In this document: piece by piece, positions 146 through 27,388 of the stretch
Position numbering within the stretch: position 1 is the first letter of the stretch
How the letters are laid out: every line of letters begins with the position of its first letter
Origin: Dudresnaya verticillata
Lineage: Eukaryota
NCBI GenBank assembly: GCA_977862235.1
Contig: OZ374558.1
Span: forward strand, 2,542,001 to 2,606,000
Reading direction: 5' to 3'
Length of the DNA: 64,000 nt
Made by a program: the position numbers and the translations under genes
The notes under the pieces: model-generated
Seen by the model: the letters and a program-made list of their open reading frames with translations, nothing else
Database searches by the model: none
What the model was told of the DNA's origin: nothing

Positions 146-998
146 TGTGGTATAACGAAAACGAAGTCCACGGAGACGCGGGGAAGTCTCGCACTGTAAG
201 CGAATGGCCTCGGAGCCAGCGAATGGCCTCGTAGCCTAACGAAGAAACGAAAACGGGGTGGTAGCGTGGTAGAGCGGAGCGGCTAACACGAAGGACCACG
301 GTGTCAACGTATTCGTGTGCGGAAGGGAGAACTCGAGCGATCGATCACCGGGGATAACTCCGGGTGCGCGAGGCTATCGAAAGTGAGGCTCGACCGTATC
401 CGCAGTCACGAAGACGAAGACACCGAACTCGAAGAAACAGCGTTTACCGAAGACTCCGAGGTCCGGGCGCTAGTCGCTTATCGGGAACCCTCGGAGGTTG
501 TGCCAGACGACTGGCTACTAAGTAGTACTACGGGAGCACGAATGCGCGTCAACGCGGGAGACGTTTTCGTACTCGAATGATTCGTAACGGCCTCGGTGCC
601 AACGAACGGTCGCCTCACGTATGGTGGCGGTTGCGAAGTGAGCCAGCGATGCATACGGAGGTGCGCGTGTCTCGTGGGCCGCGGTGCCGTTACGCGCGGG
701 AAACAACGGGAAAGTCACGAAGGTGTCAGCGATTTCGTATCGGGTGCGCACTGTAATGCGAATGCCATCGTGGCGCGCGCGATCACGAAGTCGGATCGGG
801 ATTCATCCGGAGGTGTCAGCGATTTCGTATCACGTGCGTGCTGTAATGCGTATGCCATCGTGGCGCGCGCGCGGTATGCGCTCTGTAATACGTGTGCCAT
901 CGTCGCGTGCGCATTCACGAAGTCACTTTGAAATTCGTATTTCTCGGTTCTTTTCACGTAGATCACGGAGTCATTTCACGGATAGCGTCTATACCACA
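146..998 (-). repeat. 3' LTR of A1
   Basis: Direct repeat of 9487-10339 with 2 differences seen by eye; adjacent to the PPT; internal 90-bp-period repeat at 719-912. Confidence 0.97.
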
Positions 999-1015
999 CG
1001 GTCCCCTCCTCAAGA
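999..1015 (-). promoter_or_regulatory. Polypurine tract of A1
   Basis: Minus strand TCTTGAGGAGGGGACCG abuts the LTR. Confidence 0.85.
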
Positions 1016-1050
1016 GCGAACGTCCCGGTCGCGGGTTACGGATTTACGAA

Positions 1051-1560
1051 TTGGCGTGGCCTGCGTGCAAACGATGCAATACGAAGCGCGGAATTTCGAT
1101 ATGGTCCGACCGCGACAAACCGAGAGTTGCGAATCGCGATTGACTTGGACCTCGGCGTCCGCGAAGACCTCGGAAATCACGGAGACAAAACGGATTCGTA
1201 ATCGCAGCTTCGATTCTCGAATGGCGTGCGTGCGAGTGCAGCGATGCAATACGGTGCACGGAATTTCGATATGGTCCGACCGCGACAAACCGAGAGTTGC
1301 GAATCGCGATTGACTTGGACCTCGGCGTCCGCGAAGACCTCGGGAATCACGGAGACAAAACGGATTCGTAATCGTAGCTTCGGTTCTCGAATGGCGTGCG
1401 TGCGAGTGCAGCGATGCAATACGGTGCACGGAATTTCGATACGGTCCGACCGCGACAAACCGAGAGTTGCGAATCGCGATTGACTTGGACCTCGGAGTCC
1501 GCGAAGACCTCGGGAATCACGGAGACAAAACGGATTCGTAATCGCAGCTTCGGTTCTCGA
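1051..1560. repeat. Tandem repeat, 3 x 170 bp, in the A1 3' non-coding region
   Basis: Units start at 1051, 1221 and 1391 and are near identical. Confidence 0.95.
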
Positions 1561-2428
1561 ATGGCGGGGTCATCGAAACTTCGGAATTTCACGTGCACGG
1601 CCCCCTCCTCAAGACGAAGGCGTCCGCGGCAACGTGCTTGGGGGGGTTGCGGATACGCGCTCCTCGGAGAGCTGTGTGGGTGTTGCGATGATCGCGCAGG
1701 GCAGGTAGCGTGAGCTCCGGGGTTGTTGCGGGCGGGCGAGCTGCTTCGGGGGCGCATCGGTGCGGGCGGAACGTATGCGTAATGGGGCGCCGAGGCCATG
1801 CGAGAGACTCCGTGGTCGTTGCGAAGGTGCGTCGGAACAGGTGAGCTCCGTGTCGCAAGTGAGGCGCGGGTGCGAAGTCGAAGTGCGCGTGGCGGGTGGC
1901 ATCGGCCTCGAAGTATGACGTCAGGCGCGTATGAAAGTTACGTATAGGTCAGCGTGTCCGTCCGCCGCGGTGTCAGCTCCTGTAATGCGAGTGCCGCGGT
2001 GCAACCGGGTGCGCGCGGTGCGCCTTTGTCGAATATCACGAAGCGCGTGGGACGCAGTGTGTGTCCACCGCCGCAGCGGTGGGCGCACCCGTCGCGAAAC
2101 GGAACGCTTCCGACTACGTGAGAAGCGACTTCGTGTGGGCATCGGCGCTTGCGGACACGGTGATGCGGAGTGGGCTTCGTGATGCCACCGAGGGCTGCGT
2201 TGTCATGTGCGGGGTGGCGGCCATCTGCTCCGAGGCATCCGTGTGTGTCGGGGCTGTGGTCGTGCGCGACGAAGGTGCGTCGTGAAATACGGAGTCGAGT
2301 CACGAAGGTGGGCCGCGATGTCGAGTAGCACGAAGTTGGGCCGCGATGTGCGCCGAGCGGCACTGGGCGATCGGATGCTCCGAGGCAATCGGAATGAGCA
2401 GCTTCGTAGTCAGCACGTGGTGGGAGCG

Positions 2429-4332
2429 TTAATCGTGCGACGAATTGCGGGGCACGAAGTCGGGGCCACGGAACCACTCGGGGTCCCAGTCGGAGAGCCA
2501 TTCGTGGGCGAGTAGCACGGGATCACGCGGGTCCGCTTGGCTTCGAAGCCTTGCGAAGTAGCGCGAAACGAGTTCTTCGGGCACGTGCGTACGAGGTTCC
2601 CACGTAGGCGTCGCGTAGCCGTCCCACTTGATACGAAACACGAATTTCCCGTCTTCGTCGGTCGAGTGATCGAGGATGCGATCGACAACGTATTCGGGGC
2701 CTTCGTTGACCTTTTCCGCAATGTCTTCGGGTCGCGTAATCGACGGTCGCGTATTCGTAGGGGGTGGCGCGTAGATGCAGCGGTCCGTGGAGACGCGTTC
2801 AACGAGGCCCTTGCGATCGATCACGAGTGTACGCGTATCGTTGAAGAGCACTTTGTACGTCCCCTCCGCGGGGGATTTCAACTTCGGAAGTTTCGTTTTC
2901 CCATCGTGGGTATCGAGGAACACGTAGTCTCCGGGTTTGACGCGGCTCTTCGTGTGGCGGATGCGCTTATCGAAGTCGCGTTTGTAACGATTCTGAACTC
3001 GCTGTTTGGCCGATGCTTTCGGGAGCGATGTTTCACGGTGAACTCGGGCGGCGGTCGCGATAAAACGAGATTGAACGGAGTTGTCTTCGTAGACCGATGA
3101 ACGTGGCATTTGTACGAATACGTTAACGCGGAAACGTAGCGGTCCCAATCGTTTTGGTGGTCGTTCACGTAGTTACGAAGCATCGCGAGGATAGTGCGGT
3201 TATAGCGTTCGGTTTGTCCATTCGTTTGCGGATGATACACGGAAGTGAATACGTTCGATAACCCGAGTAAGCGACAGACGCCCTGAAAGAACTTCGAAGT
3301 AAACTGTTTCCCGTTATCCGAGAGCACCGAGGCTGGCGGTCCGTACTTGAATATCCAAACTTCGCAAAAGGCAACGGCCACGTGATACGCGGTTATGACT
3401 CGTAGTGTGGCCACCTGGGTCAACTTCGTAAAGCGATCCGTAATCACGAGAATGAACTTGCGTCCGGATTTCGTTCGTGGCAACGGGCCTAAGATGTCAA
3501 TCGCGACCGATTCGAGTGGGCGCGTAGCGGGGAAGAGCTTCAAGCGATGAAGATTCCTTCGGAGACGGATTCGATTCCTTGCGCAATGTTTGCAGTTACG
3601 AACCGTGGATGCGATATCGGCTGCCATGTAAGGCCAGTAATACGTTTCACGAAGTGAGTAGAACATACGATTTTGCCCCGGGTGGCCAGCTAGTAACGAA
3701 TGATGCGCCAGCGTGAGCAAGCGAGGTCGGAGCGTCTCGGGCAATACGATTTGCGTTAGCTTCGGACTCGTTGGGTGCGTTCGTCGCAGGAGACCGTCTC
3801 CATCTTCGTGAAAGAGACTATCCTTCGTTTTCGATTGTCGTGATTGCACCGTTTGGCAGAACGAATCAATACGTTGTCCTTCGAGGATTTCGGTTACCAT
3901 AATCGGCGCAGGGAGGTCCACGGGTCTCACGTCGGTGAGGTCACTCGGTTCTTCGTTGGGGTCAATTCGATAAAGGTCAAACGGATCATCGTCATCGATA
4001 TCGTCCCATAAGTCGCAGTCATCGTAGACATCCGTTTGGCCTGCGTATTCATCACGTAGTTCTGCGTCGTGTTCATGGTCGCAGCCTTCGTAGCACGTAT
4101 GATTTGGGGTTCGGAACCCGTGGTGACCTCCGTGGGTCGTGGCGTAGTGCCTGCTCGATGTACGCGTGTCGCGGGTGTAGTCTTTCGCGTAGAGTCGTGG
4201 CGAATCGCGGTGGGCTTCGATTGACGTTTGCGGGATCGCGTAGTAATGAGAACCGGGTCTCTTTCGTTTTCGATGGTTTTCGTAATGTCGTTGCGGAAAC
4301 GTTCTTCGTTCTGCGCTGCGATTTGATCCGAG
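2429..4332 (-). pseudogene. Integrase plus chromodomain of A1, frameshifted by a 73-bp deletion near 3005
   Basis: HHCC zinc motif, IDILGP and SDNG core, EYVVDRILDH..WDGY..TWEP chromodomain. Offset to A2 changes from 31315 to 31242 across the deletion. Confidence 0.92.
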
Positions 4333-6947
4333 TCAAACGTAGGAACTTCGTCGTCGATTGCGGGTTGTTCGCGAAGCGGAAGTAGCAATCGCGAGAGGGC
4401 ATCGGGAATCTGGTGGACGCGACCGGGGCGATACACGATTTCGAAGTCGAATTCGGCTAAGCGAAGCCTCCATCGCTTGAGTCGCCCGGACGAATCGGTA
4501 AGGGAAAGAAGCCATCGGAGAGCATCGTCGTCCGTACGCACGGTGAGCCGGGTCCCTTCGATATACGGACGCAACGAAGTAACCGCCCATACGACTGCGT
4601 AGCATTCGCGCTCGGTTGCGGAGTAGTTCTTCTCGGCATCGTTTAACGAATACGACCAGTAGCCCACGGGTTGGAATTCTTCGTTATCTTGCTCCTGTAG
4701 CAACGCGCATCCGAGTTGATACGCAGACGTGTCCGTATCGATAATGTAACGTTTCCCGAGTTGCGGTAACCGGAGTATCGGCGGTGACACGAGCTTCCGT
4801 TTGAGCGTTTCGAATGCGGTAACCTGATCCTCCGTGGGATTCTCGTAGTCGGGATCCGCGTCCTTTCGCGTCAGGTTCGTCAATGGTCGCGCAATTTTCG
4901 CGAAGTCTTTCACGAATCTTCGGTATACGTTACACGCGCCAAGGAACGAACGGACTTGCGTGAGTGTCTTCGGGAACTTCGCGTATCGGAATGCTTCGGA
5001 GCTCTTCTCGGCCATATTCAGCTTCCCCGGGGAAATTACGTGTCCGAGATAGTCGACTCGCTTTCGGAAAAGGAAGCACTTCTTCATCTTGAGCGAAACT
5101 CCGGAGTTACGAAGTAGCGTGAGAACTTGATCGAGATGCGCGATGTGTTCACGAAGATTCGCGGAGAAAACGATCACGTCATCGAGGTAAACGAGACAGC
5201 ACTGCCAACGGACTCCGGATAGAATAATGTCGAGTGCGCGTTGAAACGTAGCGGGCGCGTTTTTCAATCCGAAGGGCATACGAAGATAACGATACGTTCC
5301 GAGAAACGAAGTAGACGTAGTCTTATCGCGGTCTTCCGGGGCAACCGGAATCTGCCAGTACCCGCTGTTACAATCGAGTGTCGAGAAAATCGAAGCGTCT
5401 CCGAGTGAATCGATACAATCTTCCATCCGGGGAAGTGGGTACGCGTCGGATAGCGTCTTCGTATTGAGTCTTCGGTAATCTACGCAAAAACGAAGTGTTC
5501 CGTCTTTCTTCGGTGCGAGGACTACGGGGGACGCCCACTCCGAGGTGGCTGGTTCGATTACTCCGGCTTCGAGCATACTGTCGATTTCGTTACGCACGAT
5601 TTCACGTATTGCGTGCCCTTGACGATAGGGCATCGAACGGATAGGTCGAGTACCGGGTTGTAGATCGATCCGATGCTCCGTGGCTGCGATCGTTCCGAGG
5701 TCTCCGTTCCACATCGATTCGTGCTTACGTAGCATCTCGAGGACCTCGTTTCGCATAGTTTCATCGGGTATGTTCGAAAGGTCTACGCGTTCTTCCCAAT
5801 CGCGGGAACTCGAATTGGCTTCTGCTGCTGCAGTCGCGGCACCCTTCGTGAGCGGTTTTTCCTTCGTGGATACGGATTCTTCGGGTGACTTCGAGTCGTC
5901 GTGCTCACGTAGCGTAGAGATGTTGAGCACCTTGGCAAACGAATCCGCGACTTCGCGATCGGGTGTCAGAATCGCGAGAGGGTTTCGAGCTGCGTATCCG
6001 ATGACGGTTCCCTTCGGTAGAGCTCGAGGCTTATCCGTGAAGTTCGCCATCAACACCGAAAACTCGCGATTCGGACTGACTTCGTGTATCCCGTTCGTTA
6101 ACCGTACTCCGTGTCGGTGTTGTAACGAAGGCTTCGGTTCGATATGAATTAGTCCGAGTGCTTCCGAGGTCACGGTGACTAGCTTCTGCGAATAACTCGG
6201 TATGGTGACGCGGCGGTTCAAACGAATGGTACGGGTATCACGGTCCCAATCGTGGAGCTCGCGTTGGTGTCGCTTCGATAGCGTTTTCTCGAATTTCTGC
6301 TTCGGATTTTTCGAATTAGTGACGGGTGGAGCCGATCCAGCAATGCGGTTGATAATCGGAATCTTGCTTCCACTCTTCGTGATGAGCCTCCGTGGGCTGA
6401 GCTCGATGCTTCGTAAATGCGCGTCCATCCACGAAGTTCCAAGGAGAACGTCGACCGCGAGTTTCTCCGCAACCACGAAGGGTACGCGGTATCGAACGTT
6501 CCCGAGGCGGACTGTCAGGTAAACGATACCATCGAGTCGCAACGGGGTGCGATCAGCGGACGCGAGCCTCGGAGCTGATTCCATCGTGGACGCGTTCGCT
6601 TCCCAACCGGTGGGTAACGCAGCCCGGGCTATTAAGTTGTAACCGGAACACGTATCGACTGCAATCGTATGCGGCGTCATTACGGAGGCATCGAGGCCAA
6701 TGGATCCGGTCACGAGGAAGATCTCCGAAGTCATTAAGCAAACGTATCCCTCGGTGGTAACTTCGGGTTCGGTCTTCGAGATCGGTTTCGTCTTCGAATT
6801 GTTTTCGCACGAAGCGTCTTTCGCGAGGACTCGACATCGCTTTCGGTCTCGTCGTCGTGCAGCGCGCTTCCTTCGCATCGTAGTGGCTCTCGGAATCGGA
6901 ATACGCGGTGTGTCTCGGGGAACGGATTTAGACGAAGTACGTGACAC
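3927..6947 (-). CDS. pol: A1 pol: protease, reverse transcriptase, RNase H
   Basis: VDTCSG protease, LRFCVDYRRLN, YLDD, RNase H DTS..ERE..RTD, IPDALSR. Confidence 0.93.
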   Translation of the reverse strand: MSRTSSKSVPRDTPRIPIPRATTMRRKRAARRRDRKRCRVLAKDASCENNSKTKPISKTEPEVTTEGYVCLMTSEIFLVTGSIGLDASVMTPHTIAVDTCSGYNLIARAALPTGWEANASTMESAPRLASADRTPLRLDGIVYLTVRLGNVRYRVPFVVAEKLAVDVLLGTSWMDAHLRSIELSPRRLITKSGSKIPIINRIAGSAPPVTNSKNPKQKFEKTLSKRHQRELHDWDRDTRTIRLNRRVTIPSYSQKLVTVTSEALGLIHIEPKPSLQHRHGVRLTNGIHEVSPNREFSVLMANFTDKPRALPKGTVIGYAARNPLAILTPDREVADSFAKVLNISTLREHDDSKSPEESVSTKEKPLTKGAATAAAEANSSSRDWEERVDLSNIPDETMRNEVLEMLRKHESMWNGDLGTIAATEHRIDLQPGTRPIRSMPYRQGHAIREIVRNEIDSMLEAGVIEPATSEWASPVVLAPKKDGTLRFCVDYRRLNTKTLSDAYPLPRMEDCIDSLGDASIFSTLDCNSGYWQIPVAPEDRDKTTSTSFLGTYRYLRMPFGLKNAPATFQRALDIILSGVRWQCCLVYLDDVIVFSANLREHIAHLDQVLTLLRNSGVSLKMKKCFLFRKRVDYLGHVISPGKLNMAEKSSEAFRYAKFPKTLTQVRSFLGACNVYRRFVKDFAKIARPLTNLTRKDADPDYENPTEDQVTAFETLKRKLVSPPILRLPQLGKRYIIDTDTSAYQLGCALLQEQDNEEFQPVGYWSYSLNDAEKNYSATERECYAVVWAVTSLRPYIEGTRLTVRTDDDALRWLLSLTDSSGRLKRWRLRLAEFDFEIVYRPGRVHQIPDALSRLLLPLREQPAIDDEVPTFDSDQIAAQNEERFRNDITKTIENERDPVLITTRSRKRQSKPTAIRHDSTRKTTPATRVHRAGTTPRPTEVTTGSEPQIIRATKAATMNTTQNYVMNTQAKRMSTMTATYGTISMTMIRLTFIELTPTKNRVTSPT

Positions 6948-6964
6948 AACGGGCGTCTTCGCCT

Positions 6965-9415
6965 TTACCCGTTTTCCGAACTCGAACTAGAATCCGAATT
7001 GCGAGCGTCCGCGTCCAATGGGGAGGTTGATCGATCACCTCTTCCGTTGTTCGCGGAGTCTTCGTAAGCCTCCGAGGGCAGGTTCGGGTGACTCGGCTCA
7101 ATCGCGTCAACGTTTTCACGGACTGCGAGAATCGGTTGACGGCCCGGGGCCTGCGCGTGTCTCGGATTGCGGAGGACGGTCGGTGGTCCTCGACGCTCGA
7201 AGCTGACTTGACGCTTGGCTCGGTCCCTCGGGTAGCGCGTATCGCCTTGACGAAGATCTCGGTTTACGCGATTGTCACGTGATCCTCGGGAGTCTTGTCC
7301 ACGGTGACCTCGATTGTCAACGGACGCGAACGAATTCCCTCTTGATGCGCCGCGATTCACGAAGTTATTACGCGTATACGGTCTCGTCTCGAGTTGGTAC
7401 AAGTAGTTCTGGTACGCGCAATAGAGTTGTTGCTCCTTCGTGAGATACGGACACGAATACATGAGGTGAACAATTTCGCGACAGAACCAACACGGCCACG
7501 CATCTTGATTCTTCGGTATCATCGAACGCGCCATCTCGATTTGCTCCGGGGTCATCGGGGGGACACGCGCGGGTACGAAACGCTCGATGCGACTCGTGAG
7601 ATCTAACGTATCGTCCACGGAGACCGTTGTCGAAGTAGTCGGTGTAGCGGATGTGGACCCGGTTCCTGAACAAATCATCATCACGGCCATTTGCGGGTCT
7701 TCGTTCATCGGGTACTCGTATTCACTCCCGGGAGTGTCGCAAGCTTCGATAAGCATCGTGCGTCCGGGCGCTTGGCGATTCTTCGGGTACGTAGGAGACA
7801 CTCGGTTCTTCGAATCACGCGACTGTTGGGCCGCGGTGTCACGTAGTTCGCGAGCTCGGAATGTCGTGCCTTCGGCTTGCGCGATTCGTTGCACGCTCAT
7901 AAAATTCTTCTGCTCGGACAGCGGTAAACGGCGAACCTGGTCGGCCACGATAGGATACGTAGTAGGTAGTAATCCACGAATAAACTGGTGCGTTAACGAA
8001 GAGTCATCGTAGACACCGGAGCAGACATCCGCGTAGCCTTGCAAACGAGTCGCAAACTCCATCTCGGTTTCATCGGACTTCTGCTTCGCGGTTATCACGC
8101 GATCGTGTGCGTCTGCGATTACGTCTTCCGTGAGAAATCGCTGTAGTAACACGTTCACGATCGCGGACCAGCAAACCGGGTTGCCCGTACGAACGCCTCC
8201 GAAGGCATAGTTTTGATACACCTTGAGCGCGGTCTCATCGAGAAACCACGAAATCGTACGAACTGCTGCTCCTTCGGTGAGCCGACTCCGTTCAGCGCTT
8301 GTCGAATATCACGAAGAAATGCGAGAACCTTAATCGGGTCGCGTCCCGTGAACTTCTCGAGTCTCGGCATCATCGAACGCATGCGTGAAACGGTTTTCGA
8401 CGTGTTACCTCGGAATACTTCGTGTTGATTATCCCGAGGTGACGAATTCGTGAGTCGATACGATCGATAGCTTACGGCCCGCGCGAATTCGGGGATGAGC
8501 GTCGGTATCGGTTCGACGCCCGGCTCGAGCGGTCCCCAGTGCCAGAACGATGACACGGGTCCCGCGAGCGCTAACGGATTTTCTGTTACGGGTCCTCCGG
8601 GGGACATCGGTGGTTGCAGCGAATCTCGGAATACTGCGGGGTTGATACGGGGGTTGTCGGAGGCATCGGTTGCCTGATTCGATAAAGCGTGCGGGGACGG
8701 ATTCGGATACGTGTTTTTCGGTAACGTAGATTGGGCACCCGGGCCTTGCACGGGTTGAACTAGCGGCGAATTGCGGGGGTCAGGACGGGCTTCGGAATGA
8801 TCTTCGCGACTTCGAGACTTCGGTAACGCTGCGGACACGATGTCACGAATTGCGTTCAACTGTTCCTCGGAGAATGCGTGCGAGCTGCGAACGGGAAGCG
8901 AGTGACTCGCCTTGCCCACGGGGGCGGATACGTTGCGCTCGAGCACGAGAAACCGATTGCTGACTCCCGAGACGAGATCCCGTAGACTGTCGAGTGAGTC
9001 TTCGATCCTACGGACCTTGCCAGCGCGGAGATTGTTGAACTCTTCGTGAACTCGATTGTGCGTATTACGAATCGAAAGCTGCGTGATACGGTACGCAGTA
9101 GAAAGCGCATCGATGACCTCTTCGTAGAGTAAACGTAATTCGGAACCGGAGACGTGCTTCATCGAGAAGAGTCGATCGACGGTATCCGAGGGAACGATTT
9201 CCAACGGAGTGTACGTATACGAGAGGTCGGACTGGCTACCGTGAGCCTGCGAACGCGAGTCTGTGCGAAGATCGGGTACCGTTATTCGTGAAGCGCGAGT
9301 GCGAGAAAAACGGTTCTCGGTCACTCGCGTTCGAGTCGAACAACGGGAGCTCCGGAATCGGTACGTCATCGGGTTTCGGTACCGGCGAATCGGGACGACT
9401 CGGAGCGTGAGACAT
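6965..9415 (-). pseudogene. gag: A1 gag, frameshifted near 8283 and near 9305
   Basis: Colinear with the intact 814-aa gag of A2; CCHC knuckle CWFCREIVHLMYSC. Confidence 0.9.
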
Positions 9416-9467
9416 CGTGTCTCGGATAGAAACGAATTACGAATAAATGCGAAACTTCGGGACCACG

Positions 9468-9485
9468 TTCTAGGTCGGGAGACCA
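9468..9485 (-). promoter_or_regulatory. Primer binding site, tRNA-Tyr-like
   Basis: TGGTCTCCCGACCTAGAA 1 nt after the LTR. Its complement ends G72-A73-CCA, matching the eukaryotic tRNA-Tyr identity C1:G72/A73. Confidence 0.8.
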
Positions 9486-9486
9486 G

Positions 9487-10339
9487 TGTGGTATAACGAA
9501 AACGAAGTCCACGGAGACGCGGGGAAGTCTCGCACTGTAAGCGAATGGCCTCGGAGCCAGCGAATGGCCTCGTAGCCTAACGAAGAAACGAAAACGGGGT
9601 GGTAGCGTGGTAGAGCGGAGCGGCTAACACGAAGGACCACGGTGTCAACGTATTCGTGTGCGGAAGGGAGAACTCGAGCGATCGATCACCGGGGATAACT
9701 CCGGGTGCGCGAGGCTATCGAAAGTGAGGCTCGACCGTATCCGCAGTCACGAAGACAAAGACACCGAACTCGAAGAAACAGCGTTTACCGAAGACTCCGA
9801 GGTCCGGGCGCTAGTCGCTTATCGGGAACCCTCGGAGGTTGTGCCAGACGACTGGCTACTAAGTAGTACTACGGGAGCACGAATGCGCGTCAACGCGGGA
9901 GACGTTTTCGTACTCGAATGATTCGTAACGGCCTCGGTGCCAACGAACGGTCGCCTCACGTATGGTGGCGGTTGCGAAGTGCGCCAGCGATGCATACGGA
10001 GGTGCGCGTGTCTCGTGGGCCGCGGTGCCGTTACGCGCGGGAAACAACGGGAAAGTCACGAAGGTGTCAGCGATTTCGTATCGGGTGCGCACTGTAATGC
10101 GAATGCCATCGTGGCGCGCGCGATCACGAAGTCGGATCGGGATTCATCCGGAGGTGTCAGCGATTTCGTATCACGTGCGTGCTGTAATGCGTATGCCATC
10201 GTGGCGCGCGCGCGGTATGCGCTCTGTAATACGTGTGCCATCGTCGCGTGCGCATTCACGAAGTCACTTTGAAATTCGTATTTCTCGGTTCTTTTCACGT
10301 AGATCACGGAGTCATTTCACGGATAGCGTCTATACCACA
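9487..10339 (-). repeat. 5' LTR of A1
   Basis: Repeat of 146-998, adjacent to the PBS. Confidence 0.97.
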
Positions 10340-10647
10340 GGAGTCTTCGGTAAACGCCTGTTTCTTCGAGTTCGGTGTCTTCGTCTTCGTGACCGCGGAT
10401 AGGGTCGAGCCTCGCTTTCGATAGCCCCGCGCACCCGGAGTCATCCCCGGTGATCGATTGCTCGAGTTCTCCCTTCCGCACATGAATACGTTGACACCGT
10501 GGTCCTTCGTTTTTGTCGCTCTGCTCTACCACGCTACCACACCTTTTCGTTTCTCCGTTAGGCTACGAGGCCATTCGTTAGGCTCCGAGGCCATTTCTTA
10601 CAGTGCGAGACTTCCCCGCGTCACCGTGGACTTCGTTATACTACACA
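10340..10647 (+). repeat. Right part of the older inverted family-A LTR
   Basis: Diverged reverse complement of LTR 146-457; ends ..CGTTATACTACACA; no PBS follows. Confidence 0.9.
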
Positions 10648-10743
10648 ATAATTCCCGAGACGGTCCCCGTTGACGTAACCTTGTTTCATCGTATATGTTC
10701 TCTATGCGACCCTCAGTCAGTTGCAAATAGAATTGAGGCGGTT

Positions 10744-11284
10744 TTATCGCCTATCTGTTCCTTTACAACCCTTGTAAAGCTTCCATGAGTCGACAACACA
10801 AATGCCAAAAAGTGTTGTGTTGACGCGTGTTGCCCAACCCTTCACCTCAATTTTGTTCTCAAGAGCAACGTCATCCTTTCGGCACCTGTTGCTTATTTCA
10901 AGCTGAGCACAGATGTGTAGTAGTAGGACTGACATACAGTTGGAATCTTGACTGTGCCACAATGACTTCCAATTGCGTCAAACCAGTCGCTCCATTTCTA
11001 GTACGCCAGCGCTCACGGTAGACTGGCGTAGTGTTGACTGATTTTGATTCTGTACTGATAAAGTAGCGTCGATTTCTGTCAACCCACATTAGTGCCATCA
11101 TTTCAAGGTTTCCAGAAGATGAGACAAGAGAAACATGATCACCCATTTTCGACACCTCAATCTTGGAGAGATAATCCATGGGATACCTTTTGGTAGATGT
11201 TTTGAAAACTCCCGTAAATCGTAGCCCTCTCTGATGGAGTGCTTCAGCTCCCTCCACAGAAGCAAAGAAAGAATCTGCACAAAC
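10744..11284 (-). pseudogene. piggyBac-like DDD transposase fragment
   Basis: VCADSFFAS..GLRFTGVFK, MWVDRNRRYFIST and NRCRKDDVALENK..FGICVVDSW across two frames; cut by LTR B1. Confidence 0.75.
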
Positions 11285-12120
11285 TGTGGCATAGCTGTAA
11301 GACCAGGTGTACCACGCACACGCAGCTGTAAGACCAGCTGCGCCACGTGTGCACCGCTGTGCGCATGCTGTCAGCCGGTGGCGCCGAAGCCCCGCTGAAC
11401 TGTAAGGAAGTGCGCTGTGGCGCCCGCGCGTGCACGTGTACGCGTGTGACACTGAAACTCCCATGTAATTTCTACGTTTATTTTTGTGTAGTGTACAGTA
11501 CTGTCAAGTGTAAGCGGCGGTCGAATGCCCGGCTGTCCCGCGCGTCGTGTGCACGCACTCCGGCGTAGAGCCGTTGAGTGCGTGACACGCGCGCGCGTAC
11601 TCCGGCGTCGAGCCGTTGAGTACGTGTGGACCGTTCTGCCCACGCGCGCCCCGGGTAACCGTTACCCGTACGCGTCGACGCGTGTCGGGGCGCGCCGGCG
11701 CACCTCCCGGGTTGGTGCCGTGGCAGGCCCTGTAGTCGATTTAGTAGTCGCCCCTCTGAGCTTGAGAAAACAAGGCAGGCCAGCCTACGCCAGGCTTGCC
11801 CCTTTCTGCTTTGGGTTTCTTTCCCAGTCCTTCACCCTACGGCTTCCCTCTTTCCCTAGCCGCCTAGGCTTTCCTTTTCCTTTCCCTACCGTCGGCTTCG
11901 TTCCGCCCCACGACGGGGACGCAGGGATCCGGCCGCTGCCGCCTGCGTACGGTACGCCCCGTGTGCGCTCAGGCTTCGACGCCGTTGATCCGCGACCGTG
12001 GATGGCGCGCGCGGCCGACACCACTACTCTACCCCCACCGCTACCACCCTTCGACGGGTCTGGATGCGACTACGAGACCAGCCGCGCTAGACGTCAGTTC
12101 GACCAGACGTCTATGCCACA
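11285..12120 (+). repeat. 5' LTR of gypsy element B (B1)
   Basis: TGTGGCATAG..CTATGCCACA, 836 bp, followed by the PBS and gag. Confidence 0.93.
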
Positions 12121-12121
12121 C

Positions 12122-12139
12122 TGGTCTCCCGACCTAGAA
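12122..12139 (+). promoter_or_regulatory. PBS of element B
   Basis: TGGTCTCCCGACCTAGAA, identical to the family-A PBS. Confidence 0.85.
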
Positions 12140-12266
12140 GTCGCAGAAGACCCTATCACCTCTCGCGTCGGCGCGATCGAGGCCAACAATGCCGCCGCTA
12201 CCTACTTCGGCCGGTGCTGGTTCGGCAGACGCCGCGGTAGGTGAAGCCGGCGGTCGACGCACTTCC

Positions 12267-12517
12267 ATGCTGAGTAACGTCGGCGTCTCAGGAGCTCCCT
12301 TAGAGGAACCGCGCATCGAGCGCAGGGCGGCTATAGCCAAGGCCCTAGGAGGGACAACGGTCTCTGCGACCGACCTCGAGTTAGTCCACGAGGAGACGAT
12401 GGACTCACTCTCGGAAGTGTATACCACCTTCATGGCCTCAGTCGCAGAAGCGCGGGCACAAGTTCAGCGTGACCTGGAGTCGCTTCGACGCCGAACCCTC
12501 GCCTCCGTCGAGGAAGG
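12267..12517 (+). pseudogene. gag: Element B gag, N-terminal fragment
   Basis: VSATDLELVHEETMDSLSEVY resembles A gag VSGSELRLLYEEVIDALSTAY. Confidence 0.75.
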
Positions 12518-13292
12518 TGTAGTATAGCTGGCAGCACACTATCAGCAGCGGCTGTAAGGTATGCTGGCAGCCCCGTACTGTAATGGTGCGCACGATGACG
12601 CCCGCTGGCGAGTCGTGGTTGGGCAGCGTGCCCTTAGTTTTGTCGTTGAATTAGTAGCGGTCGACCGCATTGCTGCCGGCAGCGGCCGCGCGCCGTGCCG
12701 CACACGGCGCGCCCCTGTGACGCTCTCCGGCATCGAGCCGTTGAGAGGGCCGCTGCCCGTTACGCCCCGCGCGCGCCCACGGATAACCGTTACCCGGACG
12801 TGTCGACACGTGTATGGGCGCGCGCTCGCACACCTCCCGCGTTGGTGTTGTGGGGCGCACCTACTGTAGAAGTAGTCATAGTGCACATAGTGTAGGGTAT
12901 TTAAGACCGTCGGCCATCGACGGCTCAGTAAACCGGGCAAGCAACAGCTCGCGCTGAAGCTTGCCCCCAGCCTTTTCGGGTTCGATCCCTTTGCCTTACG
13001 CCAGCGGGCGGTTTCCCTTTTTCCCCTTGCCTCGCTAGGCTTTCCCCTTTTGCTTTTGCTTTTCGTCGGCTTCGTGCCGCCCTTCGACAGGGACGCTGGG
13101 ATCCGGCCGCTGCCTACCCGCGTACGGTACGCCCCGTGCGCGCTCCGGCATCGACGCCGTCGATCCGCACCTGCGGGGCGCACGCGGCCGACACCGCTCT
13201 ACCAACCCCAACAGCTACCCATCGACGGGTCTGTGTGGCGGCTTCGGACAAGCAAGTATCAGACGTCGGATCGACCCGACGTCTATACCACA
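12518..13292 (+). repeat. LTR C (B-related), no TSD
   Basis: TGTAGTATAG..CTATACCACA; 3' half homologous to LTR B; flanks GAAGG and CGCAG do not match. Confidence 0.85.
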
Positions 13293-13357
13293 CGCAGGGG
13301 AGCCGAAGGGCAACACAATACACACCCTCGCATCCGCTATCCATTCCTGAAACGACA

Positions 13358-16300
13358 TCAAGACTGTTTCGTCGCAGAAGAATCGGCTGGCACATCCTCA
13401 GCAGCGCCCTCGGCGGACTCACGCAACGCCTCTTCGTAGAGGTCGTCCTCCGCCGTCGACGGTACACTCACGGCAGGAGCAGGGGCGGACCGCAAGGGCC
13501 GTGCCACTGCAACTGCCGGAGTGACCGCAACAGGCGCCGCAGGCGAAAGGGGCGACTTATCAGCCGCCTTTGGCGTCGTTGCGACAATATCCGCCACAGG
13601 CGATGAAGCAACAATACCCGCCATAGGCGCAGAGCTCAAGCTATCATTCGCCTTAGGCGCAACCCCAGTCCCATCCGCTTTAGGGCGCAGTCAACGACTC
13701 ATCAACCGCCTTTGGCGTAAGTTCAGAAACCGCCTCGATCGACGTCGCACCTTCACTCGCCTTCGGCGTTGTTAACTCTACACTCGTCACTGACGAAGGA
13801 GCACCTGGCCCCTTTTGAGCCGTCGATGACGCCATAGCAGCATTTGCTTCGCTCACTGAAGGCGGTACAGTCATATTTACGTCTTTAGACGCTGGACCAT
13901 TCGCCTTAGGCGACGACGGCTTTCCTGCCACACCGTCATTCGACGCAGAGCCTACGACAATAGCCGATTTCGGCACGGACGCACCCTGAGGCGGAACCGC
14001 AGCAGACAAAGATTGGCTCACCCACTCTGTGGGCAAGCCGCTCAAACCGCTAGTAGCGATGCCGGCAGCCTGTAACAACGTGAAGACCGTACGGCGCTGT
14101 TCTTCGGTCCATACCGACACGCTGGGAGCCTTCCCTGAACCGTCTATGACGTTCGATGCTCTACCTGCTGCCATTGCGGACAGGGGTGGCTCTGACACTG
14201 GCACCGCCAAAATGACGTCACCCTCGTCGTCCGCAACGGGCGCCGAAAGGTCCAAGACCGCAACCGTGGCTACGCCGGTTGGCATCGCACTCGCCGCAAG
14301 AGGCTCCGTGGGCAACGTCGTAGACGGAACAGCCGCTTCAGCGGAAGACTCCATCGCCATAGGCGTAGCCATAGCCGTTCCCGACGAGTTAACCGGTCCG
14401 TCGTTGGCGTGCAGAGCATCCTCTTCCGCCATTAAGGCGCTCAAGTGAGGAGGAAAGTCACCGAAAAAGTCGCAGGTCTTACGCAAACCGCACGGGTGAT
14501 TACCCGGCGTGAAGCGATCGGTCTTGCGATGGCGTTCCGCAATGTTCTTCGTCGTACGACGCGTTGTCCAAGGGTTGAACCAAATACAATCGCCACAGGC
14601 GGAATGAGTACGACTCATCGCGTAACGCGGACGATTCGCCTCAAGGCGGTTGTTCGCTAACGGCACGGCAACCAGGTCGTTCCAATCGATCTCATCCGCA
14701 ATCGCGCGCAGGTCCCAGAACTCCTCGGAGTTCCTGGAACCACCAAATATTTCGACCAAGTCGAGGCTACCGAGATGGGCGACCACACGCGGTGGTAGAT
14801 GATACATACGGAAGGTATCATACACCTCCCATAACCAAGCATACGCCACGTTGGCGACCCACTCGGTGTAGAACACGATCCAATACCTGGAATACGGGTC
14901 TGTCATCAGCTTGGAGCCAAGATACGTGACACACAGGGGGGGCTCTGCTGCGAGACCTTCGCATATCTCGAATTCACGCCATACAGGCGGCACCTTCACA
15001 AAACAGTAAGGTAACTTACTACGCTCAATGCGGTCGACCTGTATGTCCTGGTACGGCACAAACACGCCTGCGGCATCGACGTCAGGTCGAACTGACGTCT
15101 AGCGCGGCTGGTCTCGTAGTCGCACCCAGACCCGTCGAAGGGTGGTAGCGGTGGTGGTAGAGCGGTGGTGTCAGCCGCGCGCGCCATCCACGGTCGCGGA
15201 TCAACGGCGTCGAAGCCTGAGCGCGCACGGGGCGTACCGTACGCGGGCGGCAGCGGCCGGATTCCTGCGTTCCCGTCGTGGGGCGGCACGAAGCCGACGG
15301 TATGGAAAGGAAAAGGAAAGCCTAGGCGGCTAGGGAAAGAGGGGAAGCCGTAGGGCAAAGGACTGGGAAAGAAACCCAAAGCAGAAAGGGGCAAGCCTGG
15401 CGTAGGCTGGCTTTCCTGGTTTACTCAAGCCCAGATGGGCGACTACTAAATATACTACAGGGTCTGCGGCGGCACCAACCCGAGAGGTGCGCCGGCGCGC
15501 CCCAACACGCGTCGACGCGTACGGATAACGGTAACCCGGGGGCGCGCGTGGGCGAAACGGTCCACACGTACTCAACGGCTCGACGCCCGAATGCGCGCGC
15601 GCGTGTCACGCACTCAACGGCTCTGCGCCGGAGTGCGTGCGCACGGGGCGCAGGACAGCAGGGCGTTCGACCGCCGCTTACACTAGACGGTGCTGTAAAC
15701 TACACGACAATAAACGTAGAAATTACATGGGAGTTTCAGTGTCACACGCGTACACGTGCACGCGCGGGCACCACCGCGCAACTCCTTACAGTTCAGCGGG
15801 GCTTCGGCGCCACCGGCTGACAGCGTGCGCACAGCAGTGCACACGTGGCGCAGCTGGTCTTACAGCTGCGCGTGCGTGGCACAGCTGGTCTTACAGCTAT
15901 GCCACAACGCCCTTTTGGCGACGCGTTTCACATTCCCAACGGATACAATGCTCCCAGAAGAACGTAACCGTCCGATGCAGATAACGAAAATCCGCTTTTA
16001 AGCGTACACCTAGGAGGTAAGCCTCTTGAAAAATGCGAGGCTCGATTGACACGCTCACGTGCTTCAGCGACAACGTCCCGAGACGAGCACCATATTCGGC
16101 CTCGCCGACTGTACGGTATTGCCCTGCATCGAAATTGAAGAGGGGCGGCGTTAACGTCGACCCAGGGTAACGCGTGAAGCGTCGATATACGTCTGAGACG
16201 AACTGCGCGTGGACGTCCGCACGCGACTGTCCCGCTCACACCCAAAGCAACCCCGCAGGAACCGCACAGCGCAACTTCCACTCTAACGTCCAGAAGACGC

Positions 16301-16553
16301 CAAGGGGCAGGCCCCCTGGCAAGAAACCGCTAGTAGCGTAATGAGCGACCAATTCTTCCTCTCGCAAAGCCTCCTGGTCAAACCAGGGGGCCCGCGCGAA
16401 GAAATGCGCGTGATCGCGAGGATTCTTACCGACAAAGTCGACGGTGACGCGTACACCGGCGCGGCCGAGGGCGCCGCCACCTGCTTGAATGTCGCCATAA
16501 CGTCGAAGACGAAAATATGTTCGCGCCGCTGGCGATGAGTACACAAACGTCAA
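13358..16553 (-). pseudogene. Long accessory ORF of unknown function, antisense to element D and split by solo LTR B2
   Basis: Removing B2 plus one TSD copy fuses ..WECETRRQK|GVFVPYQD.. in frame; one stop at 16236-16238 and a frameshift near 13685. Confidence 0.8.
15069..15906 (-). mobile_element. Solo LTR B2
   Basis: Inverted copy of 11285-12120; TSD ACGCC. Confidence 0.95.
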
Positions 16554-16871
16554 AGACGACTCGTATCCGGCGCCACTGGTAAAAGGTTCTCGAAGCGTGC
16601 GTCAAAGACGATTACTGTCCAACGCCACTGGCGAAAACCTTACAACTGCACGTCAGCGAAGATTCAGTTGCTACGCCCCAGGCGATGCACAAAGCAGAAC
16701 GCCAGCAGGCGAGGGAATCTGAACGACGTCAACGAAGGGGATCGAGAGGCGCCACAGGCGATGATGTCGGCGTAGTGCAAGGGCACGCGGTGCACAACAC
16801 GAGCGAGGTTTCGCACGGCATAGCCAAAGTCGCAAGACGCGCGCGCAGACACGCCAAGACGAAGCGCAGGA

Positions 16872-17487
16872 TGTGGTGCAAATCCACTGCTGAAAACAAC
16901 AACGGAGGACACACCTCGGGCGTTCGGGACCCGCGGGTAGCGGTAGTAGGGGGTAGTGTGGTAGAGCGTGGGGAGTAGCCCCGTAGCGCGACTGTAAAAC
17001 GCCACGAGACGAAAGAAAAAGGGAGGAACCCTAAAATAGCGGAAAAGCAAAGGAAAAAGGGGGAAACAGGGTTCTGTATGGTGAAGAAGGGGTACGCACG
17101 CACTGGAGTCCCTCCTGAGAACGAAGGTGTCGGTCAAGGGTAGGGAGGTGTGTGTCGTAGAGCCCGAGCTTGGCTTGTTTACTGAATGAGGGCGCGCCCC
17201 TAGCTCTAATATACTATGTACACACGGGTGCGCCGCAAATGAAGTGGGGAAGGGAGCGTGCCATTTGGAGATTCGTGACACGCGAAAAGGGATTAACTAA
17301 AATTAACTAAAATTAAGGGTGACTGACAGTGCGTACAGTAGCGAAGATCCGCCACCATAATCTGCCACCCGTTGCCGCCGGCGCGCAGGACTTACAGGCC
17401 GGGCGCCTGACAGGGGCAGTCCCCAAGTGCATTGCTGGCGGGGAGTCAGCGATTTGAGGCAAATGAGCACCGGTGAATTGCACCACA
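16872..17487 (-). mobile_element. Solo LTR G
   Basis: TGTGGTGCAA..TTGCACCACA; TSD CAGGA; shares short motifs with LTRs D and E. Confidence 0.92.
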
Positions 17488-17564
17488 CAGGAACGGTCAA
17501 AGACGAAGGCAAGCGCGCAGCACCAGGTTGAGGGTCGGACGTGTTTGCGTTTTGGAGGGGGTCG

Positions 17565-18476
17565 CGTGGTGCAAGGGGGGGTGAGCCCCTTTTTCGCTGA
17601 AAGCGGAGCAAAAAATACGTCGACCGACGGAGAAACCGCCACCGGCGCTCACCACCGCCGTTGGCGCACGAACACGTCATCGACGGCTCACTGGGTCGCA
17701 CGCACACGCTGCGCGCCGCGCGTCATGCGGGCACTGTACGGTGATGGGCCGACATGGCGCCCCGGGGTACTGTAACACGGATCTAGATGGGATCCAGATC
17801 CGGTATCCAGATTGGCTATCTGGATCGCCTACGCTGTAATGTACGCGCCTGTAAGGCTGCGAGTGTTCGCATTGCTGGCCGGGATCCGGATGGGGATCAG
17901 GATCGGACAAGTACTGGATTAGATCAAGGGCGCACACTCTACAGTTCGCGCGCGCGCACGGCTGTAAGGCCCACGCGTCCACGTGTGTGTGTAAGCGGCC
18001 ACGCAGGGGGTCGCGCGGCAACCTTTCAGGCGGGTGGCTGCATACGATGGGTGATCTGTCAGACGCACCTCGGGACGACACGTGTCCCGAGTTCTCGCGC
18101 TACGCACCCGCACCGCCGCCGCCGCACCGTCGTGCTATACTTAGGTAAGCCGTCCCAGACGTAGCAGTAAACGCCCGGGCAAGCCGGCCTTGGTCCAGAC
18201 TTCCCCGTTCCGCACGCGCGTACCCTCCGCTACCGATGCCTACGGCCTAAGCGTCTACCTCCCGTGCTCTTCCACGATCAACCACCGTCGTTGACGTGTT
18301 TCCTTTTTGTTCTCTTTTGTTCTTGGTTTCCGCCTCGGGCGTTTACAGTCCGCCCAAAGCGATTCAACCGCTCTACCACAAGCCGCCCTAGGCGAGGTTA
18401 CTCACCGCTACTGGTGTCGGTACCCATCGAGCCCCGAACTGCTCGGCGGTGTTTCGTCCAGGACGTTTGCACCACA
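17565..18476 (+). repeat. 3' LTR D1
   Basis: CGTGGTGCAA..TTGCACCACA, homologous to 19330-20241. Confidence 0.88.
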
Positions 18477-19329
18477 GTCTAGACGACATAGGACAGCGGG
18501 AAAATCAGCAGCAAGTCTGCAATGGCAACACCGCCAAGATTGTAAGCAGGATGAATTCTTTCATGCCGCGGCTAGATCGCTACGACGGCAAGGAGCCCAT
18601 CTGCGTGCTTGGCGTGCTTAGACAGCTACGCCAAGCCATCAACGGCGTCGGCCTGTAGGAAGGCGCAGCGACGGGAGTGGTGTCCTGGTTCCTAGACGGA
18701 ACGGCATCCCAGGTGTATTGGAGTCACCTTTTCTCAGGGGTCCGGAAGACTAGTCGCGGCACCCCCCGTGCTGGGCCTCGGTGGTCAAAACCCTCGTCGA
18801 GAGGTTCTCCACCGATGACGTGATCGCCAACGCGCACGACCGACTGACCACCGCCCGGCAGCGGGACGCCGGGTCAGAACTCGACTTCGCCTCTCGTCTA
18901 CAGGGCTACGCAGATGACTGTGCCGGCGTCTACTCCGACGAGAACCTGACGCACCAGTTCCTGCGTGGTCTGCTTCCGAGCACCCGACCCGCAGTGGTGG
19001 AGAAGGTAAGGCAGATGCCGATGGTCGAGCAGACCAACTTCAGTACCGTTCGTCGGATCGCCCACAGTGAGGGCACAACCTACCGTGCCCGCATGGAAAA
19101 GGCATCGAAAACGGCTATCGCTTCGGGGCCCGGTAGGGGGAGCAGTTCGGAAAGCGGCCGCACGCGGCTTATCGAGGCGCCATACACCGCCGATACGGAA
19201 TCGGCCTTCGACGGCCCGATATTGGTGGCGCCCGATGACGATGGTTTCGAACCCGGCATGGTCGTGCCCGCGCTTTCGACAGTCGGGGCGGCGCAAGCCG
19301 AGGAGACGCTCGACATATCAGGTTGCATC

Positions 19330-20241
19330 TGTAGTGCCAGGGGGGGTCCCCCGTTTTCGCTTTCAAGCGGGTTGATATGCAGCGTCTACCGACGGACGAC
19401 CGCCAACGGCGCGCTCAACCCGCCCGCGGCGCAAACACGTCACCGACGCATGCCGCTGGCCACTTGGGCCAGAACGGCTCGCTGGGCGTGCAGACCGCAC
19501 GCCTGAACCCGGCCACTGTACGGCGCCACGCGTACGCGCATGGCGCAGTGGCGGGAACGTTCGCTGTAAGCGTGGCCCGAATCCGGATCCAATCGGGATC
19601 CCACATCGGGATCCCACATCGGGATCAAGGGGTGTAAGGCACGCGCCTGTAAGCCTGGCGCATCCGCATCGCTGGCCCGAATCCGGACTGGATCGGGATT
19701 GGTGCGGATCGAGATCGCTCGCGCCATGGGGCGCATGCGGCTGTAAGGAAGTAATCCACGTGTAGGTGTAAGGACTCGAACGGGGAAGCTACGCGTGATC
19801 TGTCAGGGGCGCGGCTGCATGACGGACGGATCTGTCAGACGCGCCTCGGGACAACACGTGTCCCGAGTTCCCGCGTGACGCGTACACCCGCGTCGCCGCC
19901 GCTAGGTAATTCTATACTTAGTTGATCCGTCTCAGAGGTCACAGTAAACACCGGCAAGCCGGCCTTGGTCCAGACTTCCCCGTTCAGCACACGCGTACCC
20001 TACCGCTGCCTACGGCTAAGCGTCTACCTCCCGTGCTTCCACGTCTCTACCCGTCTTCGACGTGTTTCCTTTTTGTTTCTTCTGTTCTTCCTTTCCGCCT
20101 CGGGCGTTTACAGTCCGCCCAAGGCGAGTCAATTGCTCTACCACAAGTCGCCCAAGGCGAGGCTACTCACCACCAAGGGCGTCGCTACCCATCGAGCCCC
20201 GAAATGCTCGGCGGTGTTCCGTCAACGACGTTTGCACTACA
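19330..20241 (+). mobile_element. Solo LTR D2
   Basis: TGTAGTGCCA..TTGCACTACA; TSD GCATC. Confidence 0.95.
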
Positions 20242-20278
20242 GCATCTACGCAGTCCTGCCGAAGACGAGCCCTCCGCT

Positions 20279-20946
20279 TGTGGTGCAGTGCCCGGAACCT
20301 GTTTTTGCGCAGACGCCCGCTCACATACACGCGCACACGGATGCGCACTCATCCACGTTTACACGCGCGACACGCGCGCCGAACATATCCGAGGGAGCCC
20401 TCGATCGGTTGCGCGCCAGCAAGGCGCACCCTTCGTTTACACTGATTTACAGTGCGATAGTAGTATTTCTACGCTAGATATTTTTGCGCGATATTTTAGT
20501 GAGCTCGCGGTGCGCGCGCATGCCAAGTGTCAGGCGCACTGCGCCAGACACGCGCGTGCACCTCCCGCGGGGGATACGTAGTATCGGGGTGAACCCCTCT
20601 CACAGTAAAGCGCCAAGTTGGTCTCTGAACCTGAGGATACCCCCGAATTTGCTTCCGGTGTCACCACCACACGGAGCGTGGGCTACGTACCCTGTTTTGA
20701 GTCCCTCTTCAGCGCCATCCTACCGGCGTGTATCGCCGTCGCTACATTTACGTGCACTACGGCACTTCAGGTGGATCGGGGGTTTACAGTCGACCCCGGT
20801 CACACTATACCCGGGGCACACCCCGTGTCTCGGCTGCTCTACAACCCCACAGGCGTCCGTCTCACCGCGTGGGGCCTGCTACCTAACCGCGCGAGACCGC
20901 GTCGAACACGGTTGGGGCAATTCCCGTTTTTGGGTGTTGCACTACA
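20279..20946 (+). mobile_element. Solo LTR E
   Basis: TGTGGTGCAG..TTGCACTACA; TSD CCGCT. Confidence 0.93.
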
Positions 20947-27154: not shown

Positions 27155-27206
27155 TCAGTTGCGTTGCCAGCGTGAATCACGTGCTTCACGCTGGCAACGC
27201 AACTGA
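27155..27206. repeat. Perfect 22-bp inverted repeat with 8-nt spacer
   Basis: TCAGTTGCGTTGCCAGCGTGAA-tcacgtgc-TTCACGCTGGCAACGCAACTGA. Confidence 0.95.
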
Positions 27207-27388
27207 AAAATAGCTTTTGGTACGACTTTTGTGCCATTGCCGCCGTTAAAAGTCACCCACGATCACAGCGATCTTCGCAAGCGAGCCTGACGAAATTCAC
27301 CAGGCAAATAGGACGTCCTCTACGTGGTATGGTTCAACAAAAGCAACAACAACGGCTGCAACAATTTCTTCCTTTTCTTAGTGATATA

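Follow-up and report, generated by a model that had tools for sequence, protein, structure and literature searches.

The 64-kb window of Dudresnaya verticillata DNA analysed here (64,000 nucleotides of contig OZ374558.1, assembly GCA_977862235.1, positions 2,542,001 to 2,606,000 of the forward strand; all positions below are those of the window) is a nest of long terminal repeat (LTR) retrotransposons, in which the ends of the LTRs carry short blocks complementary to tRNA-Tyr. Element A (146-10339, minus strand) has two 853-bp LTRs (998-146 and 10339-9487) with a 5-bp target duplication and encodes, by Pfam matches, Gag, reverse transcriptase (RT), RNase H, integrase and a chromodomain, the Gag having a CCHC knuckle pattern. 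A second copy, A' (32720-41646, minus strand), is bounded by LTRs at 33570-32720 and 41646-40796. Both match Pfam RVT_1, RT_RNaseH, rve and Chromo, in the order RT-RNase H-integrase with a C-terminal chromodomain, and both have TG...CA LTR pairs, 5-bp target duplications and a primer-binding site (PBS) after the 5' LTR; they are Ty3/gypsy chromoviruses. The pol region of A (2878-8308) consists of overlapping frames with a break between the RT and integrase frames, as does that of A'; relatives have pol as a single frame of 1300-1700 amino acids (aa), and the break is either a shared old one or a programmed frameshift. Tandem repeats of 170 bp occupy the 3' untranslated part of A (1041-1581 and onward), with none in A'.

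The PBS of A (9468-9485, minus strand) is 18 nt long and complementary to nt 59-76 of tRNA-Tyr. Within the window a PBS is seen only there, after A' (40777-40794) and after the LTR B1 (12122-12139, plus strand, the same sequence as in A), and the three copies are identical over 18 nt and divergent beyond, the length expected if RT halts at the modified A58 (PMC13191261). When metagenomes were scanned with the PBS complement and two additional T-loop letters, 32 matches came up: nine intact PBSs, three with altered first bases, one tRNA gene and 19 treated as chance. The tRNA gene, L087, is an intron-containing tRNA-Tyr(GTA) gene (ARAGORN with introns; Rfam) from a sample other than the host; with CCA added it matches the window PBS at 18/18 positions, the match stopping at nt 18, that is at tRNA nt 59. 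This bears out the proposal of an earlier note on this DNA, made from the sequence alone, that the primer is tRNA-Tyr. A tRNA-gene pattern search of genome contigs gave 0 matches; in viral contigs all 15 of the 15-mer matches were neither PBS nor tRNA, and no RT relatives were found.

Between and beside these elements lie further LTRs of the same class. Four of them (B2, G, D2 and E) are solo LTRs flanked by target duplications of 5 bp, whereas neither a PBS nor a target duplication is seen with C or D1; groups C, D, E and G being without an internal region, the primer of these six is only presumed. The earlier note counted six LTR types; B aligns with C (about 70% over 570 nt) and D1 with D2 (77%), and the window therefore holds five unalignable groups (A, B/C, D, E and G) instead. 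A scan of the window for LTR termini and solo LTRs found no additional LTR of this class lacking the motifs described below.

The LTR ends contain up to three blocks: a D block facing the D arm of tRNA-Tyr, an anticodon block facing its anticodon loop, and a third motif, GCTAC(C/T), overlooked at the first reading, which faces nt 6-11 (here the 5' block) and is present in 12/12 LTR copies. In the 5' LTR of A (minus strand) the D block (9608-9620) is a 13-nt complement of tRNA-Tyr nt 17-29 as found in L065, a second eukaryotic tRNA-Tyr gene, likewise from another sample, whose D arm is as given in the earlier note and whose PBS match is 12/18; the 5' block lies at 9601-9606 and the anticodon block at 9534-9540, in the loop of a weak predicted hairpin. 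The corresponding sites of the 3' LTR (minus strand) are 267-279, 260-265 and 193-199, and each LTR of A' has all three blocks. An older A-type LTR split by A (plus strand, 3' part 10340-10645) has its D block at 10521-10531, 5' block at 10533-10538 and anticodon block at 10598-10604. LTR B1 (11285-12120, plus) carries a degenerate D block (12024-12034) and a 5' block (12040-12045); LTR C (12518-13292, plus) a D block at 13194-13206, facing tRNA nt 15-27, and a 5' block at 13214-13219; and solo LTR B2 (15069-15906, minus) a D block at 15155-15165 and a 5' block at 15144-15149. All three blocks, in the order anticodon, D, 5', are found in solo LTR G (16872-17487, minus; 16990-16998, 16959-16968 and 16936-16941), LTR D1 (17565-18476, plus; 18342-18350, 18368-18378 and 18407-18412), solo LTR D2 (19330-20241, plus; 20107-20115, 20134-20143, and two 5' blocks at 20162-20167 and 20184-20189) and solo LTR E (20279-20946, plus; 20783-20791, 20835-20844 and 20878-20883).

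The D-arm motif stands exactly where the earlier note had placed it, at 267-279 (A), 15155-15165 (B2), 13194-13204 (C), 16959-16968 (G), 18368-18378 (D1), 20135-20143 (D2) and 20836-20844 (E, GCTCTACAA), as does the anticodon motif TTTACAGTC at 18342 (D1), 20107 (D2), 20783 (E) and 16990-16998 (G), with TTACAGT at 193-199 in A. Two generalizations hold in part: the D motif occurs in every LTR type that the earlier note listed, but the anticodon motif is absent from B and C, where a TACGGT variant is predicted to be paired; and the anticodon motif lies upstream of the D motif in D1, D2, E and G but downstream of it in A. The form GCTCTACMA has 11 matches in the window against 0.85 expected (0/100 shuffles reach 11), and every one of the 11 falls inside an LTR copy, at a distance of 95-130 nt from its 3' end. 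For TTTACAGTC there are five matches against 0.43 expected, four within LTRs and one, at 31128, in the RT frame of another element.

The edges of the blocks follow the anatomy of the tRNA. The D block coincides with the D loop and the 3' strand of the D stem, the anticodon block with the anticodon loop, and the 5' block spans acceptor bases 6-7, which PBS pairing would free, the 8-9 connector and bases 10-11; copies of A vary between C and T at the base facing G26, and both letters pair. Across groups the 5' block lies 58-120 nt from the LTR end, the spacer between D and 5' blocks is 9-48 nt, and the anticodon block lies 53-162 nt inside the LTR. The longest perfect complement to the L065-type arm is 13 nt in A and C, 11 in B2 and D1, 10 in G and 9 in D2; those of A, C, B2, D1 and G reach p <= 0.01 in 150 shuffles, and four control LTRs, described below, have 6-7 nt. 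In E and B1 the complement is 7 nt and not significant by the same 150 shuffles.

Elements from two further sources, metagenome contigs and contigs in metagenome-assembled genome (MAG) records, extend the comparison beyond the window (G numbers stand for records, L numbers for single sequences). The 18-nt PBS occurs at nine places in the genome contigs, six of them eukaryote-like element contigs in two MAG records (G001 and G002) and three chance; of these elements, picked by PBS alone, the four whose upstream DNA is long each carry a D block and a 5' block (4/4), L053 and L058 having been left out as having too little upstream DNA (56 and 102 nt). G002 is a bacterial MAG record (L065, L125 and many other contigs) in which eukaryotic retroelement contigs, a cluster of eukaryotic tRNAs in tandem and a 28.6-kb AT-rich contig bearing mitochondrial-type tRNAs all indicate contamination. 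Altogether 11 unalignable groups were compared: A; B/C; D; E; G; L056/L057/L064/L077; L033; L084/L085; the L088/L094 family (eight copies, counted once, the 5' block being intact in 6/8); L096; and L109. L077 was found by motif and not by PBS, and was excluded as a representative. A conserved 50-nt stretch that looks like a hairpin by prediction follows an AT-rich stretch in L056 (about 395-445, element sense), L057 and L077, LTRs that are otherwise 70% alike.

A blind test, in which shared 6-mers were sought in the last 200 nt of the LTR with one representative for each of the 11 groups, recovered the same blocks: the seven most-shared 6-mers are all complementary to tRNA-Tyr, at nt 6-11, 17-26 and 31-36. 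GCTCTAC occurs in 7/11 groups, a number that 0/200 shuffles reach, and in 8/11 with alternative representatives; GCTACC is found in 7/11 (1/200 shuffles) and TACAGTC in 5/11 (3/200). Their tRNA-sense counterparts occur in 0, 0 and 1 of the 11 groups respectively, with no GGTAGAG, and on the sense strand of element A no complement of the D or anticodon block is present. In the stretch from -400 to -200 only words of the AGTAAA type are common to groups. Counted by group, the D block is present in 8/11, the 5' block in 8/11 (L109 additionally having a wobble variant), the anticodon block in 6/11 and at least one block in 10/11. The claim that the motifs are common to unalignable LTRs thus withstands extension to 11 groups from three sources, and the complementarity directed at tRNA-Tyr is real and conserved.

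That pieces of the tRNA follow one another in tRNA order on the antisense strand of the LTR, and overlap the region of the A box, would also suit a tRNA-derived RNA polymerase III promoter or a tRNA mimic. But tRNA nt 12-14 are mostly unmatched, so that neither an A box nor a D stem can form; a B-box-like word on the antisense strand appears in 3/12 LTR copies, in positions unrelated to one another; no tRNA was detected in the window by ARAGORN, and Rfam gives three weak sub-gathering matches with none over threshold in 1-51000. The promoter version is largely refuted, as neither strand has an intact A box with a B box after it, and this explanation as a whole is extremely improbable.

A different history, in which the blocks are relics of an antisense tRNA-Tyr copy in an ancestral U5 and were inherited without function, would account for the anticodon and D blocks of L084/L085, which lie nearly in tRNA register (their LTR ends resemble those of D, E and G and are followed by a near-intact Tyr PBS), for the single clade to which the elements belong, and for the decay seen in B1 and L096. 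The six RT-bearing elements with a Tyr PBS form one clade (support 100/99) in a tree that contained no reference elements of named clades (Tcn1, Chlamyvir and others). But RT identity within that clade goes down to 51%, and spacers and flanks are unalignable and of variable length (9-48 nt), yet the blocks are kept letter for letter: between A and L033, which come from different sources, the sole shared exact stretch is 21 nt spanning the D and 5' blocks. An origin from a captured tRNA is possible; survival of the blocks by neutral inheritance is disfavoured, and we regard the relic account as very improbable.

Predicted folding bears on the level at which the blocks act. A hairpin-loop position is predicted for the anticodon block of D1, D2, E, G, L085 and L109, with a weak hairpin in A and none in L084, compared with 1/37 of the other TACAGT sites in 1-51000; the stems of these hairpins are unrelated between families, and when a longer stretch is folded D1 takes a partly different structure. 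Hairpin loops on unrelated stems are an RNA feature and argue against the motifs being DNA sites of a host transcription factor, or processing signals, that match the tRNA by coincidence. CTACC does resemble MYB-type sites of plant LTRs, for which the literature search gave no paper; repeats like CTACC crowd together in places in G and B, TTACAG is found again and again along the LTRs, and primer and clade are confounded, all of which would fit such sites. However, three motifs match three parts of one tRNA, in a single orientation and mostly in tRNA order, and they lie at least 150 nt downstream of the TATA-like and AGTAAA motifs, which makes a coincidental match quite unlikely. The word CTGTAA/TTACAG, in either orientation, has many copies in the upstream part of the LTRs of all groups (for example at 751, 841 and 883, and in 17770-17967), and is likely an enhancer word.

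Where the transcript begins and ends matters for the step at which pairing would occur. Some 30 nt past a TATA-like stretch, B2, C, D1, D2, G and L084 have the motif AGTAAA(C/G) (for example 12927-12933, plus strand). It lies upstream of all blocks, in the window's groups 300-370 nt from the LTR end, and by its sequence context is likely a start and/or poly(A) signal. The blocks, being downstream of both the TATA-like and AGTAAA motifs, are likely transcribed in the 5' leader beside the PBS, with the general caveat that the R/U5 border of LTRs is uncertain without transcript ends (PMC3601003). If AGTAAA is the poly(A) signal, the 3' end of the RNA would be without the blocks, which speaks against their pairing with tRNA-Tyr at another step, namely selective tRNA packaging, or minus-strand transfer if the blocks lay in R; that the 5' block keeps within 58-120 nt of the LTR end across groups also suits a role near the PBS. 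Such a role elsewhere is served equally by the complementarity evidence, and the U3-R region of HIV-1 (human immunodeficiency virus) reportedly contains a tRNA-like stretch that aids strand transfer. On the same side, Ty3 joins the D arm of its primer to U3 at the RNA 3' end (PMC5371799). We consider packaging or transfer unlikely.

From the block sequences and their placement, we infer that the function of the blocks is extended primer-template pairing: up to three blocks, 50-160 nt upstream of a full 18-nt PBS, probably pair with the primer tRNA-Tyr (nt 6-11, 17-27 and 30-37) outside the PBS at primer loading and initiation. The hairpin loop of the anticodon block would dock the anticodon loop of the tRNA first, in a loop-loop contact; nucleocapsid-assisted annealing of the PBS would then open the acceptor and T stems and free tRNA nt 1-7, after which the D and 5' blocks could take hold of the D arm and of the 5' strand so released. 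The captured tRNA might be held open, or RT paused, until RT displaces the blocks after about 60-80 nt of minus-strand DNA. Opening the D arm would cost about 4 kcal/mol, against a predicted gain of 12-28 kcal/mol in the isolated D-block helix, and the geometry of such pairing would cross the PBS helix, as with the upstream contacts of HIV. The idea that the blocks substitute for nucleocapsid was rejected, since 12/12 Gag regions of the Tyr clade (A, A', L050, L051, L053-L058, L109 and L122) have the CCHC pattern.

Helix energies of the D block are about -12 to -16 kcal/mol with L087 in the window LTRs except B1, and about -17 to -28 kcal/mol with L065. The PBS fixes U66 and so allows either A or G as tRNA nt 7. 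In L087 this base is G (G7); each GCTAC(C/T) block has C opposite nt 7, a mismatch to the A7 of L065. The window blocks thus fit L087 at the PBS and nt 7 but L065 at U20, G26 and G27, and a host isodecoder combining the PBS-matching end and G7 with U20, G26 and G27 is predicted from these sequences. The earlier expectation of one tRNA-Tyr with a PBS-matching end, the D arm and the anticodon is therefore borne out in L087 for the end and the anticodon only, its D loop reading GGCA instead of GGTA and its A26 and U27 differing. A candidate covariation between tRNA C20 and an element G, in L084, was dropped because G wobble-pairs with U20 and L085, of the same record series, has A.

Controls came from LTRs whose primer sites are of other kinds (n = 4: L059 and L060, each with an 8-nt match to initiator tRNA-Met (iMet); L114, with a half-iMet site; and L062, whose site is uncertain). 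A search by RT for more gave matches in 2/151, 0/101 and 2/401 genomes and added G074 and G329, the contigs of G074 having no usable LTR-PBS junction. The D and anticodon blocks are absent from these controls (0/4 each) and the 5' block is present in one (1/4), the controls belonging to other clades. Neither of the outcomes that the earlier note named as refuting, a non-Tyr primer or motifs just as common in LTRs with other primers, was encountered. L059 and L060 are iMet-type elements in which the PBS match is just 8 nt, as in Ty3. When duplex energies of 15 test LTRs were set against 60 shuffles, 6/15 beat all shuffles with L065, 1/15 with L087 and 0/15 with iMet.

Several observations weigh against extended pairing with tRNA-Tyr. 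Control L062 with L087, and G with tRNA-Asp, also beat all 60 shuffles, and the co-folded controls L060 and L114 equal the best test LTRs in binding strength; neither duplex energies nor co-folding of the tRNA with U5-PBS RNA, a check proposed in the earlier note, separated test from control LTRs. The D block fits other tRNAs too, for example tRNA-Lys, and TTACAG is repeated many times in the upstream part of the LTRs. The D motif is degenerate in the PBS-bearing copy B1; none of the blocks accompanies the PBS of L096; the anticodon block is absent from the MAG-record groups as well as from B/C; and the block order of A differs from that of other groups. Neither of the two tRNA-Tyr genes fits everything, L087 accounting for the PBS and 5' block and L065 for the D block with its PBS at 12/18, both from non-host samples, and C20, A26 and U27 give L087 the poorer D-block fit. 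The RT-bearing elements with a Tyr PBS all belong to a single clade, which confounds primer with ancestry, and the controls are only four, one of them with an uncertain primer site. Finally, Box 2.1 of Ty1 is unconfirmed in particles by SHAPE (selective 2'-hydroxyl acylation analysed by primer extension; PMC3592414), so complementarity can mislead.

The remainder of the window contains features of other kinds. At 28367-32719 and 41647-42716 lies a further gypsy element, split by A' and only distantly related to A (about 25% RT identity; nearest to L062); it has short LTRs without the blocks and, after the 5' LTR, lacks a standard TGG primer site. A 1.3-kb repeat family of about 70% identity, without a long open reading frame, lies at 21749-23063, 44864-46168 and 48272-48486, and near-perfect palindromes of 71 bp and 34 bp are found at 27146-27216 and 48054-48087. 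At 51621-62753, 3.1-kb tandem units that run to the window end hold near-identical gene copies encoding a protein of 620-656 aa, without a Pfam match, whose N-terminus is signal-like and which contains an acidic stretch and Cys-rich repeats. Of 308 candidates two proved to be homologs, and the one with a name comes from Chondrus crispus, which points to a red alga as the likely host.

The arrangement proposed here resembles several known systems in part. Like Ty3 of Saccharomyces (PMC5371799), these are Ty3/gypsy elements with a single Gag CCHC knuckle and a D-arm complement outside the PBS. In Ty3, though, the PBS for tRNA-iMet is split between the 5' UTR (untranslated region) and U3, about 4800 nt apart, whereas the window elements have a contiguous 18-nt PBS for tRNA-Tyr, which excludes a bipartite PBS of the Ty3 type, and their blocks sit a short way upstream within that same LTR end, with blocks facing the anticodon and the 5' strand among them. 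HIV-1 and HIV-2 with tRNA-Lys3, and Rous sarcoma virus (RSV), likewise combine a full 18-nt PBS with upstream sequence, including an apical loop whose sequence complements the primer's anticodon loop; extended contacts there comprise the A-rich loop with the anticodon and U5 with tRNA-Lys3 in HIV, and U5 with the T loop in RSV (PMC3185550). The HIV A-stretch lies about 10 nt from the PBS and targets the anticodon, variable loop and T stem (PMC3185550); the window blocks are 50-160 nt from the PBS, with an 8-9-nt loop match, and target mainly the D arm and nt 6-11. The copia-type Ty1 similarly has several short boxes beyond the PBS (Box 0, Box 1 and Box 2.1, with tRNA-iMet), but SHAPE places its extra pairing downstream of the PBS (PMC3592414), whereas the blocks are upstream, inside the LTR. 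Half-tRNA priming (copia, Ty5; PMC5371799) also involves element sequence complementary to the anticodon arm; there the match is the PBS itself, adjoining the LTR, whereas here the anticodon block lies within the LTR, at 53-162 nt from its end, alongside an ordinary PBS for the tRNA 3' end, which excludes that mode, control L114 showing the true half-iMet pattern. In domain order (RT-RH-INT-chromodomain, with RNase H as RH and integrase as INT) and 5-bp target duplications the elements match the plant chromoviruses of REXdb, for which the primer types given are Met, Arg, Lys, Asp, Asn and self-priming; the main text of that survey makes no mention of tRNA-Tyr, Rhodophyta or red alga (PMC6317226). 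By analogy, the blocks likely work like known extended primer pairing; what sets them apart is the primer, the presence of three blocks upstream of a complete PBS, and the nt 6-11 target. No prior description of these motifs was found in the literature searched, most subscription papers and Repbase-type records being outside its scope.

A bolder reading, which we think very unlikely, takes the features of T-box leaders as its model: the LTR leader, resembling a T-box of eukaryotic kind, would read intact tRNA-Tyr at four points (the anticodon through a looped UAC-A word, the D loop, the 5' strand and the NCCA end), and the supply or charging of tRNA-Tyr would switch the RNA between translation and reverse transcription. 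If so, the blocks would co-evolve with host tRNA isodecoders.

Returning to extended primer pairing, such pairing is known from few laboratory models and is disputed even there (PMC3185550; PMC3592414). That blocks facing the tRNA are the most-shared words of unalignable LTR ends offers independent, evolutionary support that such pairing matters, and singles out the tRNA segments concerned, namely nt 6-11, the D loop and the anticodon loop. Our findings suggest a clade of chromoviruses primed by tRNA-Tyr in likely red algae, which we did not find in the literature searched, and provide in the blocks a marker for inferring the primer of solo LTRs.

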